A stretch of DNA of 64,000 bases from Polypterus senegalus (taxonomy: Eukaryota), in NCBI RefSeq assembly GCF_016835505.1, contig NC_053155.1:74788088-74852087 (forward strand). The letters run 5' to 3'. Shown one piece after another: positions 6,092 through 63,182 of this stretch. How positions within the stretch are numbered: position 1 is the stretch's first letter; each line of letters starts with the position of its first letter. Under the pieces are notes generated by a model, which was given only the letters and a program-made list of their open reading frames with translations, was not told the DNA's origin and searched no databases. The position numbers and the translations under genes were made by a program.

Positions 6092-6234
6092 CCTGCGGTG
6101 GGCTGGCGCCCTTCCCAGGATTTGTTTCCTGCCTTGCGCCCTGTGTTGCCTGCGATTGGCTCCAGCAGACCCCCGTGACCCTGCATTTATTATATAGCGG
6201 GTTGGATAATGGATGGATGGATGGAAATCGTCCT
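6092..6234 (+). repeat. SINE 3'-tail fragment (same family as 2172-2448)
   Basis: ggtgggctggcgccc…gattggctccagcagacccccgtgaccctg…ggatggatggatgg. Confidence 0.7.
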
Positions 6235-18496: not shown

Positions 18497-18606
18497 TATC
18501 CATCCATTATCCAACCCGCTATATCCAAACTACAGGGTCATGGGGGTCTGCTGGAGCCAATCCCAGCCAACACAGGGCGCAAAGCAGGAAACAAATCCCG
18601 GTGTTC
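18497..18606 (-). repeat. SINE 3'-tail fragment, reverse orientation
   Basis: ccatccattatccaacccgctatat…cagggtcatgggggtctgctggagccaatcc is the reverse complement of the SINE tail. Confidence 0.7.
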
Positions 18607-31460: not shown

Positions 31461-32195
31461 CAGCATTACTTTCTGTACCACGCATCAAACTCAGTTGTAT
31501 GTGAGCTTGAGCGTCCTCTCGTAGTGCTCCGCTCCTCAACTCTGGAATTCTCTTCCCTCTCATATCCGTCAACTGGACTCAATAACACATTTTTAAACTG
31601 CCTTCAAAACGTATCTTTTCAAACTGGCATACCAATTATTAATTTAACATTGTTACTGCCTGTTATCTTTGTATGTTTGCTACTACCTCTATACCTTATT
31701 ACTATTTGATTTTATTGTCCTCTTTGTTTTTATATTTTACTAATGTTATTTAATTTCATTGTAAGGTGACCTTGAGTGTTAAAGGTACCTGTTAAATGTT
31801 TTATTATTAATGCTATTCAAAGTCTGTACAATTTCTGCTGCTACTCGGATTCATTGTCCAATCTTATCAGCTGTACAATAACTCATGAAGAAGACCTCTC
31901 GACTTTCTTGATTGCCTCTACTTGCCCTTTTCTTAAAGAGACCAAGCCACTACCTTTTTTTGGAGAAGACCATGACCTCAGATTTGGAGGTACTAGTTGG
32001 CATCCATACAACGTCTTACTCTGCTACAAATTGTTCGCACCAGAAATTTTCTGGTCATGGACAATATGATTTCTTAGCAGTAATATCATTGTTGCTATGT
32101 ATACTAAACACCATCTTGCATCATCAAGTATGTACAGTGGGTACGGAAAGTATTCAGACCCCCTTCAATTTTTCACTCTTTTTCACTGTAAGGTC

Positions 32196-33986
32196 CATTC
32201 CTTACAGCTTACTTACAAAAATTAAGCAGGTTTCATTTTGAAATACTACGCGTAACGGTCAACAACGTCCGCCATATTGAACTTTCTTATTCATGGCCCC
32301 ATCTTCACGAAATTTGGTACGTGGCTTCCCTGCGCTAACGAAACCAATGTACATACTTATTTGGTGGTATGGCGCCACTGTCAGCCGCCATATTGAACTT
32401 TCCAACGTCACTAATTCTCCTACTTCCCGTGTAGGTAAAAGGCTGAAATTTGGTACTTATTTCAGTGGTATGATGCCACTGTCGGCCGCCACATTGAACT
32501 TTTAACGGAAACCGATGCCCGTACTTATTTCGTTGGTATGACACCACTGTCGGCTGCCATATTGAACTTTCCAACGTCACTAATTCTCCAACTTCTTGTG
32601 GATGTAGAAGGCTGAAATTTGGCAGGCTCATTCCTTACAGCTTACTTATGACAGTTAAGCAGGTTTCATTTCGAAATTCTACGTGTAATGGTCATAACGG
32701 TCAACAACGTACACCATGTTGAACTTTCTTATTTATGGCCCCATCTTCTCGAAATTTGGTAGGCGGCTTCCCTGAGCTAACCGAAACTAATGACGTACTT
32801 GTTTCGGTGGTATGATGCCACTGTCGGCCGCCATATTGAACTTTTCAATAGTCTTTGTTACTTATGGGCCCATCTTCAAGAAATTTGGTACACGGGTTCC
32901 CAACGCTAACTGAATCCTACTTGCGTACATATATACGTCCATAGCCTGCAGCTCGGTCACCGTGAGGCGGCATTGGGTCCCCCAACCCAACGCCTCCCAT
33001 GTTGTTGGCTGCCTGCCTATATAAGACCGTTCGTCGCTCCGGTCTCTACATTCCCTTCCTTGCTTCGCCATGGGATTCATGTCTCCCTACTGATAACTAC
33101 AGCCTTTTTGTTTAATCCACGGCTTCTCTGCTGTTTTATTGTTTGTTTATTACAATTATAGTTATTGTGTAGATATTTTACACTTACTTTACATTGCTCA
33201 GGTACCCATCTCCTTTATCATTCCAACCCCCATTACCATGTCTATCGAGATGATCATATTGCACGGCCATATCAGGCTCGCGCTTGATATCCGGAGGAAC
33301 ATTGTGTCTTATGTATTGAATGACTGGGACAGGTTCAAGGTGTGGACTGATGACAGTACAGGAGATAATTATACTACACAGGAGCACTATAAGAGTGAAA
33401 TGCTTAAGCCCTTCACCTATGGTTCTGCATGTGAGTTGATGGCTGCCACTGAATTGTTCGGTTGTTGCTTTCAAGTGTACCAAAATGGCCAAATATTTTA
33501 CACCTTTCGACAACCGCCAATGCCTCTTAAACATCTTAGATTCACAGGTGACGATTTCAGAAGTGGACACTTTTTGATGTTTATGAATGTTTAAACTCTT
33601 CAAAAGCTGGATGTGATTTTATCGATGAAACCGGTTGTGTGCTTACAATGCTTGACAGATGCCAAATGTCACTTCAACACAACAAATCCTGCAAATACTG
33701 TCATAATTGAAACAAACCATGAAACTCGAGCTGCCTCCAAGCTGTGAGATTTGAGACAAGATTACTGTTCACATGGCCAACTGTAAGTTGCATGCTCAAG
33801 AGTAAGCTCAGCGCAAAGCTTGGTCATGTTACAACTGGAGGGCCGAACTGACAACATGGTATACAAAGAGATCCTTAACAAATAATTATTGGCATATTTT
33901 CCCTTAGTTTTAAAAGGTTTAATTTTCTTCTTAATAAAAATTTTAATGCAGTACTTCGCTGTTGCGAAGCGCGGGTATTTTGCTAG
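32196..33986 (+). mobile_element. Helitron-like composite non-autonomous element, copy 1 (5'-truncated)
   Basis: Left edge abuts a truncated Tc1 TIR (cagtgggtacggaaagtattcagaccccc, 32135-32195). Contains tandem ~150-bp sub-repeats (32290-32930), TATA (cctatataagacc ~33013), a leader, the OTU-like ORF, and the 3' end …cttcgctgttgcgaagcgcgggtattttgCTAG|T. Confidence 0.45.
33238..33594 (+). CDS. OTU-like cysteine-protease-fold ORF (118 aa from the ATG); the catalytic Cys motif is absent
   Basis: MSIEMIILHGHIRLALDIRRNIVSYVLNDWDRFKVWTDDSTGDNYTTQEHYKSEMLKPFTYGSACELMAATELFGCCFQVYQNGQIFYTFRQPPMPLKHLRFTGDDFRSGHFLMF follows the OTU topology (…H..lR..vv.Y…F..F… / Y…M…g.wGg.iEl.A..e….I.vy / …HY…). The position of DGNCLF reads HGHIRL. 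Confidence 0.4.
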   Translation: MSIEMIILHGHIRLALDIRRNIVSYVLNDWDRFKVWTDDSTGDNYTTQEHYKSEMLKPFTYGSACELMAATELFGCCFQVYQNGQIFYTFRQPPMPLKHLRFTGDDFRSGHFLMFMNV

Positions 33987-34129
33987 TGTATATATAAATG
34001 TGGATATATACTGAGTGATCAACACATTTTGAGCCTGATGTATTATGAGAAACATAGAAAAATCTTTGTTTTTTTTATCTTCTGTAACTGACTGACTTTT
34101 TCCATTGTTTGTATGGTGTGCTGTGTGAG

Positions 34130-34330
34130 GTAGCTGCTCAGACTAGAGAAAATATGGTATTTACACTGAGCAAAGGTCTGGTGAATAGGATGGGTAAGGC
34201 ATATTTAGCACCTCATGGCACCCTTTGCAACCTGTGCACTGTAAGCATTGACATGAGGTAGGTAGAAGATGAGTCATAGATTTCTTGGCTGCTTTTCCCT
34301 TTATTAACTACCATTAGACCAAGCAACTCG
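34130..34330 (+). repeat. Unclassified ~200-bp repeat, copy a
   Basis: …cagactagagaaaatatggtatttacactgagcaaaggtctggtgaata…gcttttccctttattaactac… is shared with 36555-36740. Confidence 0.4.
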
Positions 34331-34454
34331 GCACAATATTTAGCAGATTTTGTGAATTTTTAGCTCCGTGTTGACTTGGTTCAGAAACAGAAGTACATAC
34401 TAGAAATCAAAAATAGTAAAAAAAAAATAATAAATAAATTAACCTATTTACTTG

Positions 34455-35641
34455 TCTATACTAATAAAAGGCAAAGCCCTCACTAACTCATTCATCACTA
34501 ATTCTCCAACTTCCCATGTAGGTAGAAGGCTGAAATTTGTCAGGCTCATTCCTTACAGGTTACTTACAAAAGTTAAGCAGGTTTCATTTCGAAATTCTAC
34601 GCGTAACGGTCATAACTGAATACTACTTGCGTACATGTATACATCCATAGCCTGCAGCTCGGTTGCGGTGTGAGGCGACGTTATGTCCCCCATCCCCACG
34701 CCTCCCACGTAGTTGGCTGCCTGCCTATATTGCGTCCCCCATCCCCACGCCTCCCATGTAATTGGCTGCCTGCCCATATAAGACTGTCCGTCGCTCCGGT
34801 CTCTTCATTCCCATCCTTGCTTCGCCATGGTATTCATGTCTCCCTGCTGATAACTGCAGCCTTTTTATTTAATCCACGGCTTCTCCGCTGTTTTATTGTT
34901 TGTTTATTACAATTATAGTTATTGTGTAGGTATTTTAGACTTAGTTTACTGTTCAGATACCCATTTCCTTTACCGTTCCAACCGTACCCCCATTAACATG
35001 TCTATCGAGGTGATCACCATCGATCAAAGAACTGTCACTTACTGAAACTCAAACCAATTATGACAGCAGCAATCCAAGCTGTGAGAAAACAGTAAAAAGG
35101 AGGCGTGTCAGACGTCGTGGTACATTTTCTGATGCAACTAGACGGAAACAACTTCGTGACGCTGCCTCCAAATACTCGCAGAACAATCCAAGTTAATAGA
35201 CACGCTGTCGCTAAATACTTGCAGGCATATCCACAAGTTCATAGAGACGCTGTCGCTAAATACTTGCAGGCAGATCCACAAGTTCCTAGACACGCAGCTG
35301 CTAAATATCTGCAGGCAAGTTCACAAGTTAATACTGGGAATGCCTGTTAAACATCTTAGATTCACGAGTAGCGATTTGGGTAGTGAACACTTCGATGAAT
35401 GAAACCTGTTATCTTTACAACGGTTGACAAACACAGAATGCAACTTGAACACAACATGTCCTCCAAATACGAACCTGATTGAAAGAAATGATAATCAAAT
35501 CCTTGATGACAGCAACACTCATAAGTGACAAAACAATTACATTAACAATCATGTTACGTTATTTTTAAAATGTTTCCTTTTCTTTTTCATAACTTCTTTA
35601 ACACACTACTTCTCTGCTGCGAAGCGTGGGTATTTTGCTAG
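34455..35641 (+). mobile_element. Helitron-like composite non-autonomous element, copy 2 (complete ends)
   Basis: 5' TCtatactaataaaaggcaaagccctcac…(tgac/tcat)…cactaattctccaacttccc…ggcaggctcattccttacag…gcgtaacggtcataactg. TATA (cccatataagactgtcc ~34785), a leader, three 42-bp tandem repeats (35190-35340), and 3' …ctgctgcgaagcgtgggtattttgCTAG|T. Confidence 0.45.
35190..35340 (+). repeat. 3 x 42-bp tandem repeat inside copy 2; translates as (N/H)R(H/D)AVAKYLQA(Y/D)PQV. A divergent version lies in copy 4
   Basis: atccacaagttcatagagacgctgtcgctaaatacttgcaggca repeated. ORF 35105-35350 is a by-product of the repeat. Confidence 0.6.
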
Positions 35642-36044: not shown

Positions 36045-36297
36045 GGTATGCTATAGCATCTTTTTGGGGGGATGGCAACTGCCAGTTAAACTTTTTGAAA
36101 ATGTATACGATTATTAGCTGAGTCATCTAATTTATAGAAAACATTATAACCCTTAAACTTGTTGAATTTAGTACACAGTTTTTGTTAGTATTGGAATGCT
36201 TTTTTATGTACAGTATTGGTTTCCTTTCCGGTGTAAAGAATCCCAAAATTCAAGAACTCTGGAAATAATGTATTTGTTTACATAGTACTGCTAGAAC

Positions 36298-36427
36298 TGT
36301 GGTGGGCTGGTGCCCTGCCCGGGGTTTGTTTCTTGCCTTGAGCCCTGTGTTGGCTGGGATTGTCTCCAGCAAACCCCCGTGACCCTGTAGTTAGGATATA
36401 GCGGGTTGGATAATGGATGGATGGATA
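36298..36427 (+). repeat. SINE 3'-tail fragment
   Basis: ggtgggctggtgccctgccc…gtctccagcaaacccccgtgaccctg…ggatggatggatag. Confidence 0.7.
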
Positions 36428-59047: not shown

Positions 59048-60133
59048 CTAGCAAAATACCCGCGCTTTGCAGCGGAGAAGAAGTGTGTTAAAGAAGTTAT
59101 GAAAAAGAAAAGGAAACATTTTAAAAATAATGTAACATTTGCTTTCTATTTGTTTGCATAAACACAGTCCTTCACCAGCAATTATTTAACGTTAGCTCAG
59201 ACCCGGCACTTAAAAGTTTCTGTTGCACTTTTGCTGAGTTTGCGCCAAACACTATTCTATCTCTGACCATTTCATCTTCGTTTGCATAAGCACAGTCCTT
59301 CACCAGCAATTTTAACTCGGTTACAAAGTGATCAAAAGTGTTGTTTATATCCTGCGTCCTCTCAGTAAACTTGTATCTCGCAAATATCGCATTCGTCTTA
59401 GGCATGACAAACGCCATCGGCAGTGTGTCTATAAACTTACGGTTTACACCGTGCTTTGTTTCTGCAGTAGCTGCACTTATGAATATGCTTGTATGCGTCA
59501 CTCGCTTCATATTCTTTTGCTGCCTTCTCAATTGTGTAATGCGTTTTTTGTTCAGAGCTCTTCCTTGTTCTCTGCGTACTGCGTTCATAGTCAGTTCACG
59601 TGAGCTACTCAGAGTACATGCATAGAAGGTTTCTGAGCTGTGCTTGTGCTATCTTGTGCGATGTCCACGGCTTTATTTTATGTTAGCTAAGACCCGGCAC
59701 TTAAGTTTCTCTCACACTTTCGCTGAGTTTGTGCCAAACACTACCCTGACCATCTCATCTTCGTTTGTATAAGCACAGTCCTTCACCCGCGAATATTTAG
59801 CGGCAGAGTGTTTCTACTGGATTGCCGCTGATGGACAGACTTATATGGGCAGGAACTCAATTACGTGGGAGTCGTTGGTAAGGTGGACGCAATTCTGCCT
59901 CACATGGCGACTGAGCTGCAGGCTAAGGCCATATACAGTATGTGTACATAAGTAGGTTCCAGTTATGACCGTTGCGTGTAGAATTTCGAAATGAAACCTG
60001 CCTAACTTTTTTAAGTAAGCTGTAAGGAATGAGCCTGCCAAATTTCAGCCTTCTACCTACACGGGAAGTTGGAGAATTAGTGGTGAGTCAGTCAGTCAGT
60101 CAGTCAGTGAGGGCTTTGCCTTTTATTAGTATA
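59048..60133 (-). mobile_element. Helitron-like composite non-autonomous element, copy 3 (minus orientation)
   Basis: Read on the minus strand: 5' TCtatactaataaaaggcaaagccctcac(tgac)5…cactaattctccaacttcccgtgtaggtagaaggctgaaatttggcaggctcattccttacag…, then TATA (cccatataagtctgtcc), the Gag-like ORF, and 3' …ccgctgcaaagcgcgggtattttgCTAG|T at 59048-59051. Confidence 0.45.
59172..59588 (-). CDS. Retrotransposon Gag-like ORF fragment (138 aa) carried inside copy 3
   Basis: …ARYKFTERTQDINNTFDHFVTELKLLVKDCAYANEDEMVRDRIVFGANSAKVQQKLLSAGSELTLNNC matches the Retrotrans_gag core pattern (F…Q…E…F…L.L…C.Y…EE.iRDrlV.G…+LL….LTL). Confidence 0.45.
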   Translation of the reverse strand: MNAVRREQGRALNKKRITQLRRQQKNMKRVTHTSIFISAATAETKHGVNRKFIDTLPMAFVMPKTNAIFARYKFTERTQDINNTFDHFVTELKLLVKDCAYANEDEMVRDRIVFGANSAKVQQKLLSAGSELTLNNCW

Positions 60134-60284
60134 GATTAGCAGAATACCCGCGCTTCGCAACGGAGAAGTAGTGTGTTAAAGAAGTTATGAAAAAGAAAAG
60201 GAAAAATTTTAATAATAACGTAATATAATTGTTTTGTCTTTGATATGAGTGTTATATATATATGTATATATATAAGTTGGCGTC

Positions 60285-60456
60285 AGAATATATAAAGTCA
60301 TTCCCGAATATATAAAGTCAAAACTTGAATATATAAAGTCACGGTCGGAATATATATAAAGTCAAAACTTGAATATATAAAGTCAGCGCTGGAATATATA
60401 AAGTCAAAATCGAAGTATATAAACTCATTCCTGAATATATAAAGTCAAAATATATT
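60285..60456 (+). repeat. Iteron-like array, forward arm: ~8 x gaatatataaagtca plus a 6-nt spacer (aaactt alternating with gcgctg-type)
   Basis: Read directly from the sequence. The unit is ~21 bp and the dimer ~42 bp. Confidence 0.8.
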
Positions 60457-60553
60457 GATTGAAACGACTCTGAACTGAACTAAGTGAACAAAAACGTATT
60501 CAGAAAAATAAATTAAAAAACGCTGTTCGGTTAATGTTTTGAAAATGATGCAT

Positions 60554-60664
60554 GTGCCCTGCCCAGGATTGGTTCCTGCTTTGCGCCCAGTGTTGGCTGG
60601 GATTGGTTCCAGCAGACCCCCGTGACCCTGTGGTCGGATTCAACGTGTTGGGAAATGGATGGAT
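60554..60664 (+). repeat. SINE 3'-tail fragment inserted between the two palindrome arms
   Basis: gtgccctgcccaggattggttcc…ggttccagcagacccccgtgaccctg…ggaaatggatggat. Confidence 0.7.
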
Positions 60665-60669
60665 ATTCC

Positions 60670-61048
60670 AGAGCTGACTTTATATATTCCGACGCTGACT
60701 TTATATATTGAAATTTTGACTTTATATATTGTAGCGCTTACTTTATAGCCTGTATTCCAACGCTGACTTTATATATTCAAGATTTGACTTTATAGATTCC
60801 AGCGCTGAACTTTATATATTCTGACGCTGACTTTATATATTTAAGTTTTGACTTTATATATTCCAGCGCTTACTTTATATATTCCGAAATATTCCAACGC
60901 CGTCTTTATATACTCAGGTTTTGACTTTATATATTCAGAAACAAGTATTGACTTTATATATACCGACACTGACTTTATATATTCAAGTTTTGACTTTATT
61001 TAATCCGACAGTGACTTTATATAATCAAGTTTTGACTTTCTATAGTTA
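60670..61048 (-). repeat. Iteron-like array, reverse arm: ~18 x tgactttatatattc (reverse complement of the forward unit)
   Basis: Read directly from the sequence. Together with 60285-60456 it forms a long imperfect palindrome. Confidence 0.8.
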
Positions 61049-61770
61049 AATGTAGTCATCATTGCATACATTTTTCTTCACCATAGAAATTTAAAGACTA
61101 AATTCAACTTCCATTCCTACCAAAGATATTTCTGGTGACTAAATAGAACCTACTTGTATCCAAATTCGAGCTATTGAGCTGTCGCCTGCCTGCCTGAATA
61201 AGTCCCCCTCGCTTCGCTCTTACTTTTTACCGTTCATTTAATCATGGCTAGTGGCGGAAAAATTATAAAATGGAAGGAGGATTACACTGAGTATGGCTTT
61301 ACCAAAACAATTATTGATGGCGAATCGATTATTCATAAAGCTTCAATTGGTGATCTGTTTTTCTGTGTTAACCTCATATTTTTTCATACTTCTTCTCAAA
61401 CCAAGGGGGTGCGAGGTTAAAATGAATCGGGAAGCGCTGATCAATGTAATCGGTGTACCAGGAAATCATGCATTGAGAGAAGTTCCCCTTTGCTTGGAAT
61501 GCAAAGTGTGATTAAATACATGATTTTTTTAACGTGTTATGGAGCACATGCATTGAAGCTTCTAGGCTGTGCTTGTGCTAAGAAAAGGAAACATTTTAAA
61601 AATAACGTAACACGATTGTCAATGTAACCTTTTGTAAGTAGTGCCTGGAGGATTCAGTGTGGAGAAACTGTAGAGACAGCGTGTGTATTAACTTGTGGAT
61701 TTTTCTGTGAGTATTTGGTGGCAGCGTCACAAAGGCGCTTCTGTAACACTGCGTACGTTAGCTGCGGAGC

Positions 61771-61983
61771 TCAGCTCAGAGCGAAATGAGGTGAATGGGA
61801 GAGGAGATGATGACGTGACTCCCCACCTGCCTTAACTGTCAATCCCCACAAACACAGTCTCTCGGAATTTGCATAAGCACAGCCCTTTACCTTCAATTTT
61901 AACTTAGTTACAAAGTGATCAAAACTCTCGTTTATATCCTGCGTCCTCTCATTAAACTTGTATCCCGCATTACCCGTGGGCAT
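61771..61983 (-). pseudogene. Gag-like ORF fragment in copy 4, paralogous to 59172-59588
   Basis: MPTGNAGYKFNERTQDINESFDHFVTKLKLKVKGCAYANSERLCLWGL… matches the same Gag core, then degenerates. Confidence 0.4.
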
Positions 61984-63182
61984 GACAAACGCCAGCGGTA
62001 GCCTGTCTATGAGCTTAATTAAACTTTAGGTTTACACCTTGCTTTGTTTCCGAAGTAGCAGCACTCATGAATATGGTTGTACTGTATATGTCACTCGCTT
62101 GCTTCTCATTGTTTCGCTGCCTTCCTAATTATATAATGTATGTTTTCTTCAGCGGTTTTTGGAGCTCTTCCTGGTTTTCTACGTACTGCGTGATTACGTG
62201 GGAGGCGTGATGATGTCACACGAAACTCTGCCCCCACGGCTTTCGAGCTTAACTCCATTACAGTAAATGGAGAAAAATAGCTTCCAGTTATGACCCTTAC
62301 GCGTAGAATTTTTAAATGAAACCTGCCCAATTTTTGTAAGTAAGCTGTAAGGAATGAGCCTGCCAAATTTCAGCCTTCTACCCACACGGGAACTCGGAGA
62401 ATTACTGATGAGTCAGTGAGTCAGTCAGTGAGTGAGTCAGTGAGGGCTTTGCCTTTTATTAGTATAGATCACAGTTAAATAATTCTTGTGAACAGTCGCG
62501 CAGCAAAAATTAAAAAATGCTAGACAGTAGGATAGTTTCGTATCTGTCAGACTTGCTTAATGTAATATATGGTTGTGGAGAGCCAGAGCCTATTCTCCAC
62601 ATGGGCAGCCTCCAGGCATGCAATTTCAAGCCCACTTTCCAACCCGAATTACACAGACTATAAATAAATTTACAATGTGAAATAATCACTTTTCTCTAAA
62701 ATAACAATTAATAGGAAGTAATAAAAATGATAGGTAATTCATAACAAAACTGCACAACATTAATAAAAAAAATTATATTTTAACAAATGCGCAAAGAATT
62801 TAACAGTTAATGGATTACAGATGTCTCTTTATTTGCATGGCTTTGTTTCTTGTGAATTATTACTAAATCCAGTTTATTACCAGATTGTTAACATAAACTT
62901 TGTGATCTGTTGGAATTTAAAGTTAAATATAAATGTAATTTCTTTTTCACAATTTAACACATTTGCTTGAATCCAGCTGATATTTTTATTTGTTTTCAGC
63001 TTAATGTTGACTGCATTTTTATCAGTTAATGTTTGCTGGTTTTCTAGGTGGTTCTAAATGATTTTCTGACTGGATCTGTGAACTGATCCCACAAACCCTT
63101 ATAAAACATTGAGAACAAGAATGTACTGTACTATAGTTATTCATTTTTTTTTTCTTTCCATCATTTGTACCTTTTCCTGCAG

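Follow-up and report, generated by a model that had tools for sequence, protein, structure and literature searches.

Four copies of a probable canonical Helitron family in the bichir Polypterus senegalus, two of them with remnants of an OTU protease gene

The window analyzed here, a stretch of 64,000 nucleotides from the bichir Polypterus senegalus (NCBI RefSeq assembly GCF_016835505.1, contig NC_053155.1, positions 74,788,088 to 74,852,087 of the forward strand), contains four segments that have both of their ends in common and differ in between, which raises the question of what kind of element they represent and where their interiors come from. We propose that these segments, designated c1 to c4, very probably belong to one canonical (HLE1-type) Helitron family of polypterid fish, as old, non-autonomous members. 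In PMC11417382, HLE1 elements are defined by a TC start, a 3' end made up of a short hairpin and CTRR, and insertion between A and T; HLE2 elements are those with short terminal inverted repeats (TIRs) that insert between T and T. A preliminary description of this DNA had put forward a non-autonomous Helitron family, with a Helentron-like family as the alternative.

A blastn comparison of the window with itself, combined with direct reading, recovered four copies of one family with common ends and unlike interiors, bearing out what had been described (Table 1). The common left end (left-terminal sequence, LTS) measures 165-290 nt at 82-88% identity (294 nt at 82% for c2 and c3; 213 nt at 86% for c3 and c4; 100% over the first 30 nt and 88% over the next 137 nt for c2 and c4). 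The common right end (right-terminal sequence, RTS) comprises about 90 nt at 77-95% identity (91 nt at 94.5% for c2 and c3; 97 nt at 91.8% for c2 and c4; 83 nt at 80.7% for c1 and c2). Since E-values for the shared ends range from 1e-9 to 1e-62 and the flanking DNA is unrelated among the copies, this sharing is not due to chance. Two boundaries had to be revised. The limit between c3 and c4 had been placed 2 nt off and reads ...GCTAA-TCTATAC... (here and below, a hyphen in a junction marks the element boundary). The start of c1, previously given as 32196, lies at about 32187, which corresponds to LTS position ~84; this copy thus lacks the first ~83 nt of the LTS, including the TC terminus, and its left edge abuts a 55-nt Tc1-like TIR fragment.

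These data also bear on the possibility that the segments never formed a mobile unit and are scattered, degraded fragments of an OTU-carrying Helitron or of a multicopy host OTU gene, assembled by local rearrangement and with coincidental boundaries. Only four copies in two clusters are at hand, c1 being rearranged and truncated and c4 chimeric, and structure-based Helitron finders produce many false positives because TC and CTRR are so short (PMC11417382). However, the start of three units and the end of four coincide to the base while their interiors differ and their flanks are unrelated, the 9-nt 5' terminus matches that of active maize Helitrons, and the tandem joint between c4 and c3 is exact to the base. 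Moreover, with 5-20% divergence between pairs, the copies did not arise by recent local duplication. We consider an origin from unrelated fragments quite improbable.

The ends themselves conform to an HLE1-type Helitron. The 5' terminus is TC in all three intact copies, c2, c3 and c4 each opening with TCTATACTAATAAAAGG, and the first 9 nt of the left end read TCTATACTA. This nonamer is identical to that of maize Hel1-4 and Hel1158, which transpose and are flanked as A-...CTAG-T (PMC10095026, Table 3). The 3' terminus, ...CTTCTCCGCTGCGAAGCGCGGGTATTTTGCTAG, conforms to CTRR in four of four copies (CTAG in c1, c2 and c3, CTAA in c4) and is followed by T each time. At the exact head-to-tail joint of c4 and c3 (CTAA-TC), a single T serves both as the base after CTAA and as the first base of the following TC, which places the trailing T outside the element. 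Accordingly, the earlier statement that a host T always follows holds as far as the base is concerned, although one of these T residues is the first base of c3's own TC. TC is preceded by G in c2 and by A in both c3 and c4.

Reading of the flanks revealed no target-site duplication (TSD) around c2 or around the combined c4 and c3 unit, as the preliminary description had expected. Likewise, no TIR, long terminal repeat (LTR) or long terminal direct repeat was found in the copies. Comparison of the first 60 nt with the last 120 nt gave no inverted 7-mer in any copy and a single 7-mer in direct orientation, shared by chance. It upholds the view that the two ends repeat each other in neither direct nor inverted orientation, and TIR, LTR and Helentron-type subterminal inverted repeat structures were rejected on its basis. 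TC, CTRR, the following T, the lack of TIRs, LTRs and TSDs and the exact joint thus support the Helitron assignment; the Helentron-like alternative fails, as terminal or subterminal inverted repeats were not found.

Asymmetric ends without TIRs could also point to another class without terminal repeats, such as a retroposon derived from a short or long interspersed nuclear element (SINE or LINE) or a Crypton- or DIRS-like element. Against this stand the lack of a poly(A) or simple-repeat tail and of a TSD, the absence of reverse transcriptase, tyrosine recombinase and endonuclease remnants, and the absence of any tRNA or other RNA family match in the window at the curated gathering thresholds of Rfam. 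Furthermore, the internal coding remnants are homologous to the N-termini of Helitron polyproteins. We regard membership in such a class as extremely unlikely.

What do these remnants represent? Copies c1 and c2 share a block of 290 nt at 89% identity, which holds a TATA-like motif, a 5' untranslated region (UTR) of ~210 nt and an ATG opening MSIE... In c1, pieces of the LTS are internally duplicated (32187-32261, 32408-32453, 32577-32698 and 32907-33022) with GCCGCCATATTGAACTTT modules between them, and are followed in order by the promoter, the 5'UTR, a decayed OTU open reading frame (ORF) and the RTS. The region around the c1 TATA-like motif would have promoter activity. The c1 OTU ORF has lost the catalytic-Cys motif DGTCLFHSL to an in-frame deletion of 81 nt and contains a frameshift near 33574; at the amino acid level it is 49-52% identical to the proteins P0027 and P0155 and 78% identical to P0011. 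Copy c2 retains three to four 15-aa repeats, and its linker and repeats are 48-58% identical to P0027 residues 177-257 (E 1.6e-13), which is the stretch between OTU and Rep. The intact ORF, assembled from P. senegalus gene models, begins with MSIEVITIDQRTVTYRVVSMPGDGTCLFHSLCYILHGH...SGHFDVYE, which amounts to a complete OTU cysteine protease.

Table 1. Coordinates of the family copies and of their features within the window (aa, amino acids).
Feature	Position	Strand	Remarks
c1	~32187-33986	+	5'-truncated copy; RTS ends CTAG-T
c2	34455-35641	+	complete copy: g-TCTATACTAAT...GCTAG-t; no TSD
c3	59048-60135	-	complete copy; 5' TC directly after CTAA of c4; 3' end CTAG-t
c4	60136-62468	-	complete but chimeric copy: a-TCTATACTAAT...GCTAA; head to tail with c3; internal truncated RTS
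c2 LTS	34455-34620	+	TCTATACTAATAAAAGGCAAAGCCCTCACT, then (CACTGACT)n-like microsatellite, then conserved box
c3 LTS	59970-60135	-	equivalent of c2 LTS
c4 LTS	62285-62468	-	equivalent of c2 LTS
c1 RTS	33896-33986	+	family consensus ...TTCCTTTTCTTTTTCATAACTTCTTTAACACACTACTTCTCCGCTGCGAAGCGCGGGTATTTTGCTAG
c2 RTS	35545-35641	+	equivalent of c1 RTS
c3 RTS	59048-59138	-	equivalent of c1 RTS
c4 RTS	60136-60233	-	equivalent of c1 RTS
LTS box, c1	32436-32453 and 32605-32622	+	TAGAAGGCTGAAATTTG(G/T)
LTS box, c2	34523-34540	+	TAGAAGGCTGAAATTTG(G/T)
LTS box, c3	60038-60055	-	TAGAAGGCTGAAATTTG(G/T)
LTS box, c4	62363-62380	-	TAGAAGGCTGAAATTTG(G/T)
c1 GC-rich hairpin	33954-33969	+	CTTCGC-TGTT-GCGAAG (stem-loop-stem); 17 nt from 3' end
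c1 promoter-like region and 5'UTR	32972-33237	+	TATATAAG at 33018-33025; 89% identical to c2 34729-34997
c2 ATATAAG	34776-34782	+	within c2 34729-34997
c1 decayed OTU protease ORF	33238-33729	+	starts MSIE, then post-OTU linker
c2 OTU start	34998-35045	+	first 15 codons only (MSIEVITIDQRTVTY, then stop)
c2 basic linker and 15-aa repeats	35092-35332	+	KRRRVRRRG...; A.AKYLQ..PQV.R
c2 OTU C-terminus and post-OTU linker	35340-35489	+	last ~20 OTU codons (MPVKHLRFT..SEHFD)
c3 138-aa ORF	59172-59588	-	sequence shared with c4 61868-62152 at 78% identity
Internal truncated RTS in c4	61580-61627	-	96% identical to c2 RTS; without hairpin and CTAG
c4 foreign insert or cargo	60263-61044	.	inverted 21-bp arrays 60263-60451 and 60663-61044 around SINE-like piece 60540-60664
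Tc1/mariner-like terminal fragment	32135-32186	+	CAGTGGGTACGGAAAGTATTCAGACCCCC...; abuts c1 left edge at about LTS position 84; outside the family

When 1.84 billion representative proteins were searched with a profile of the OTU ORF, 400 hits were obtained, P0027 among them at E 1.8e-36. P0027 (contig L002) and P0155 (contig L001) consist of an OTU domain, a basic linker and (AAVAKYTQxNPEVHR)n repeats, and on both contigs the reading frame runs on into a CxxC...CC motif and then Helitron_like_N (Pfam E 5.5e-60). The Rep region of L001 and L002 matches Helraiser (7LCC, residues 121-624) at E 1.9e-83. A moth contig, L012, more distant from the bichir family than L001 and L002, carries one intact ORF of 2085 aa that combines OTU, 15-aa repeats, DUF6570, Helitron_like_N and PIF1 and is devoid of an endonuclease. 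A word-seeded protein search with the c2 linker and repeats gave no match, and the L001 Rep had no counterpart in a scan of viral contigs.

Because the same promoter-OTU front leads into Rep and PIF1 in these relatives, the TATA module and OTU piece, which had been interpreted as captured cargo, are not such cargo and are instead remnants of the parent element's own gene front. Copies c1 and c2 are internal-deletion derivatives that retain both ends along with the promoter and fragments of the OTU and repeat coding region, and the label 'composite' previously attached to them fails.

The relatives themselves show further features. The apparently intact Helitron ORF of the moth, Loxostege sticticalis, lies at L012 9794-16051 on the + strand (CM081042.1). 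A decayed copy in the butterfly Parnassius apollo (L011 10001-16032), which belongs to another superfamily than L. sticticalis, is 85% identical to this element at the nucleotide level over 4.7 kb, a likeness that may reflect recent activity and horizontal transfer. The OTU profile also matches P0085, P0093 and P0119 (~750-920 aa, E ~1e-20), in which an N-terminal OTU is joined to a region resembling the baculovirus capsid protein P87/VP80; the Helitron OTU type therefore has relatives in baculovirus-like-capsid proteins.

The LTS provides an additional link between the bichir copies and these relatives. Its conserved box is matched five times in the window, against 0.11 expected, and all matches fall within family copies. 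In such related Helitrons the box TAGAAGGCTGAAATTTGG is encountered again, either ahead of the OTU gene or inside the element. Contig L001 opens with AGAAGGCTGAAATTTGG, ~620 nt upstream of its OTU ATG, and c2 is arranged alike. Local alignment of L001 with the bichir LTS scores 18-19, compared with a maximum of 14-17 for shuffled sequences, and none of 500 dinucleotide shuffles reaches the score. The moth contig L012, which was retrieved by protein homology alone and not by the LTS motif, contains three copies opening with TCTGGGGGCACGG... after an A. The alignment of one of these copies with the bichir LTS (ACTCATTCATCA...ACTTCCC...TAGAAAGCTGAAATTTGG...TTACTCACAAA) scores 21-23, versus a shuffle maximum of 16. 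The blastn likeness between the bichir LTS and the autonomous moth copy, which consists mostly of the (CACTGACT)n microsatellite, was discounted.

As to the internal layout of the LTS region, c1 32262-32906 holds tandem modules (...GGTATGRYGCCACTGTCGGCCGCCATATTGAACTTT...), three to four in number and ~70-100 nt each, interleaved with the duplicated LTS pieces. Tandem repeats are found between LTS and promoter in L001 (170-420) and in the moth (L012 17438-17747) as well, with sequences different from those of c1.

An exact scan of metagenome contigs for the family 5' terminus gave no matches. Scanning with the 19-nt LTS box yielded 8 loci in about four independent sequence families, none of which encodes OTU or Rep; these are likely chance matches and were dropped as evidence, their number being about the chance level by our own estimate. 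Three metagenome-labelled contigs among those considered, L003, L004 and L008, carry a eukaryote-like repeat family with GTAGAAGGCTGAAATTTGG in tandem units of ~143 bp, a layout resembling that of c1 and the moth copy. OTU and Rep are absent from these short contigs and the GTAGAAGGCTGAAATTTGG match is probably due to chance; any score obtained for L003 would be circular, because this contig was selected by the box motif.

The relatives are also central to weighing the alternative that the copies are non-autonomous 'HINE' members of a Helentron/Helitron2 (HLE2) family. HLE2 elements are characterized by terminal or subterminal inverted repeats of 11-18 nt, a 3' stem-loop, insertion between T and T and, often, an OTU domain. 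The OTU was long regarded as HLE2-specific (PMC11417382, PMC4067079), and the moth relative with the same OTU-repeat front has two HLE2-like traits, a palindrome 3 nt from its 5' end and DUF6570, a domain reported to be almost exclusive to HLE2 (PMC11417382). OTU, internal microsatellites and tandem repeats are indeed common to the bichir family and to Helentrons, HINE and DINE-1, as may be a short 3' stem-loop and, in the presumed bichir parent, a rolling-circle Rep/Hel. However, the subterminal inverted repeats, T-rich ends and TT sites of the latter were not found in the window copies. No copy has an inverted repeat of at least 7 nt between its terminal segments, the ends are TC...CTAG or CTAA, and none of the 5' flanks (g, a and a) is T. 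Moreover, the closest protein relatives, L001 and L002, carry a Helraiser-like Rep, and an OTU upstream of RepHel has been described for HLE1 by HELIANO in 2024, by its own account for the first time (PMC11417382). On balance, an HLE2 origin appears improbable to us.

Several observations nevertheless weigh against an HLE1 family with an OTU-Rep-helicase parent. The moth Rep carries DUF6570, and since an OTU front is coupled to this domain there, the OTU front alone does not fix the Rep type of the bichir partner. That autonomous partner is deduced from relatives with ~50% protein identity. Remnants of Rep or helicase were not found in the window, which confirms and extends the earlier remark that it lacks a Rep/Hel ORF, and the RTS of the window copies was not located in contigs L001-L012 and so provides no tie to an autonomous element. 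Comparison of the few moth copies did not yield a defined 3' end for the moth element either. In the autonomous moth copy the box is degenerate and, without the microsatellite, 44 of 500 shuffles reach the alignment score, which is not significant.

The junctions and the hairpin raise further points of this kind. The sample consists of three intact 5' junctions and four 3' junctions. The host A before TC, which the preliminary description gave for two of three intact copies, stands unambiguously at c4 only, since c2 has G in this position and the A ahead of c3 is the terminal base of c4's CTAA and not host DNA. The 3' hairpin is short and imperfect in three of the four copies, with a perfect 6-bp stem in c1 (-6.5 kcal/mol, z -1.3) and 4-5 imperfect base pairs elsewhere. 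It folds no better than shuffled sequences (z-scores -1.3 to +0.7), and none of the seven consensus pairs shows compensatory changes, giving no covariation support. Hence, the hairpin reported previously is retained as a perfect stem ~17 nt from the end in c1, while it is weaker than stated in the other copies.

Comparison with known systems is consistent with an HLE1 family that has features of its own. Like canonical HLE1 elements (Helibat/Helraiser of Myotis, maize), the bichir family starts with TC, ends with CTAG or CTAA followed by T and is devoid of TIRs and TSDs; it also resembles them in the heterogeneous interiors, in one head-to-tail pair and possibly in the short GC palindrome before the 3' end. 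The Helraiser palindrome, however, measures 19 bp and lies 11 nt from the end, whereas the bichir hairpin is far weaker and lies 15-17 nt from the end. Unlike Helraiser, the bichir parent would encode an N-terminal OTU protease and 15-aa repeats, and in contrast to the Helraiser and maize HLE1 elements, the bichir LTS holds a microsatellite and a conserved internal box. The OTU-carrying HLE1 elements of HELIANO agree with the presumed bichir parent in the OTU upstream of RepHel and with the bichir family in HLE1-type ends; the excerpt of that account (PMC11417382) does not mention a 15-aa repeat block or an LTS box. Heli1Xen1-b, a Helitron family of P. senegalus and Erpetoichthys, occurs in the same host lineage and has TC...CTAG termini (PMC12001565). 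Its RTS hairpin, CCCGTTA...TAACGGG, and its TATATAAA-rich LTS are both missing from the window copies, and the main text of that paper does not contain the OTU. With terminal motifs that differ, Heli1Xen1-b was rejected as the identity of the window family, which may already bear a name in Repbase or Dfam.

A parent of this family would begin with the LTS (TCTATACTA..., microsatellite and TAGAAGGCTGAAATTTGG box) and end with the RTS, in which a short GC hairpin is followed by ~15 nt and CTAG. In between, it would possess its own TATA promoter, a 5'UTR and a single long ORF, in which an N-terminal OTU protease would be followed by a basic linker, the 15-aa repeats, a CxxC..CC motif of zinc-finger-like character, an HUH Rep and a PIF1-like helicase. 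Copies c3 and c4 would represent a subfamily in which the coding region has been lost and foreign pieces are carried.

For mobilization, a scheme can be drawn from the biochemistry of Helraiser, in which the LTS is essential and the RTS hairpin signals termination; when the hairpin is bypassed, downstream DNA is captured, and circles with a precise CTAG-TC joint occur as intermediates (PMC4778049). In the bichir, Rep/Hel supplied in trans would nick the top strand of the copies, acting as passive substrates, at A-TC. The helicase would peel off the nicked strand in the 5' to 3' direction until halted by the RTS hairpin and CTAG, after which the strand could be circularized, joining CTAG to TC, and integrated between an A and a T with no duplication of the target. 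The c4-c3 joint may have arisen by insertion of one copy into the A-T site made at the end of the other, or by missed termination and joint movement of both units. The truncated, hairpin-less RTS inside c4 would fit either a 3'-end bypass or a chimera of two copies.

The interiors of c3 and c4 differ from those discussed so far. Their common block, 290 nt at 78% identity, is distinct from the c1/c2 block. The 138-aa ORF of c3, which we take to resemble the gag of LTR retrotransposons, has no Pfam or PDB match and is likely foreign cargo of the c3/c4 subfamily. A ZBED/hAT-like start within c4 likewise lacks Pfam support. Beside the internal RTS of c4, positions 61671-61734 match the repeat region of c2. 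The foreign insert of c4 is foldback-like, with a 21-bp repeat GAATATATAAAGTCA..., and its SINE-like piece has relatives at 2382-2446, 6108-6222, 18497-18598 and 36297-36426 of the window. Within the family, real foreign cargo is plausible in these two copies alone. Outside the family, the Tc1-like fragment next to c1, which we assume to deserve this label from its likeness to the Tc1 TIRs of fish and amphibians, has no partner TIR in the window.

Sequence of this family is also found in annotated genes of the host. The OTU-like ORF matches nine 'partial' P. senegalus proteins at 82-94% identity, and further top matches of the profile are likewise P. senegalus gene models, many of them chimeric with the element as an exon. 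In all, the OTU/5'UTR piece occurs in at least 12 gene models (P0001-P0012, KAG24xxxxx) on at least 8 chromosome-sized records, and the 5'UTR of the element is translated in frame within P. senegalus models. Those carrying an element exon, often as the first, include TFF3, AGAP3, FRYL, PDGFD, GNPTA, CLPX, ST7, ANX10, ARTN and BODG. Such models are either annotation artefacts or real chimeric transcripts from the element's promoter.

Returning to the relatives, the OTU-repeat N-terminus of the moth protein is 42% identical to that of P0027, compared with 23% between the moth protein and the Rep core of L001, a close relative of L002, the contig of P0027. The OTU-repeat front thus appears more strongly conserved than the catalytic domain, suggesting that Helitron lineages may have exchanged modules. 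As the box is conserved among the bichir, L001 and moth elements, one may go further and speculate, though we hold it to be rather unlikely, that the OTU protease and 15-aa repeats constitute, together with the LTS box, a conserved front end found in Helitrons of widely divergent Reps, namely Helraiser-like (L001, L002) and DUF6570-containing (moth L012) ones. If true, this would mean either that 5' halves are swapped between Helitron lineages or that the box and the protein front are a co-evolving cis/trans pair, in which case the 15-aa repeats would be a DNA-binding module for the repeated TAGAAGGCTGAAATTTGG boxes of the LTS. The LTS box is a concrete candidate for a cis-element recognized by Helitron transposases beyond the terminal 40 nt.

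For annotation, the four copies should be masked as Helitron-derived, together with many OTU-like 'first exons' of models such as TFF3, PDGFD, GNPTA, ANX10 and ARTN, which belong to the element and not to host coding sequence. With its own promoter and start codon, the family can seed chimeric transcripts. It further illustrates a Helitron family with canonical ends whose parent would carry an N-terminal OTU protease, a combination known for HLE1 since 2024 only.

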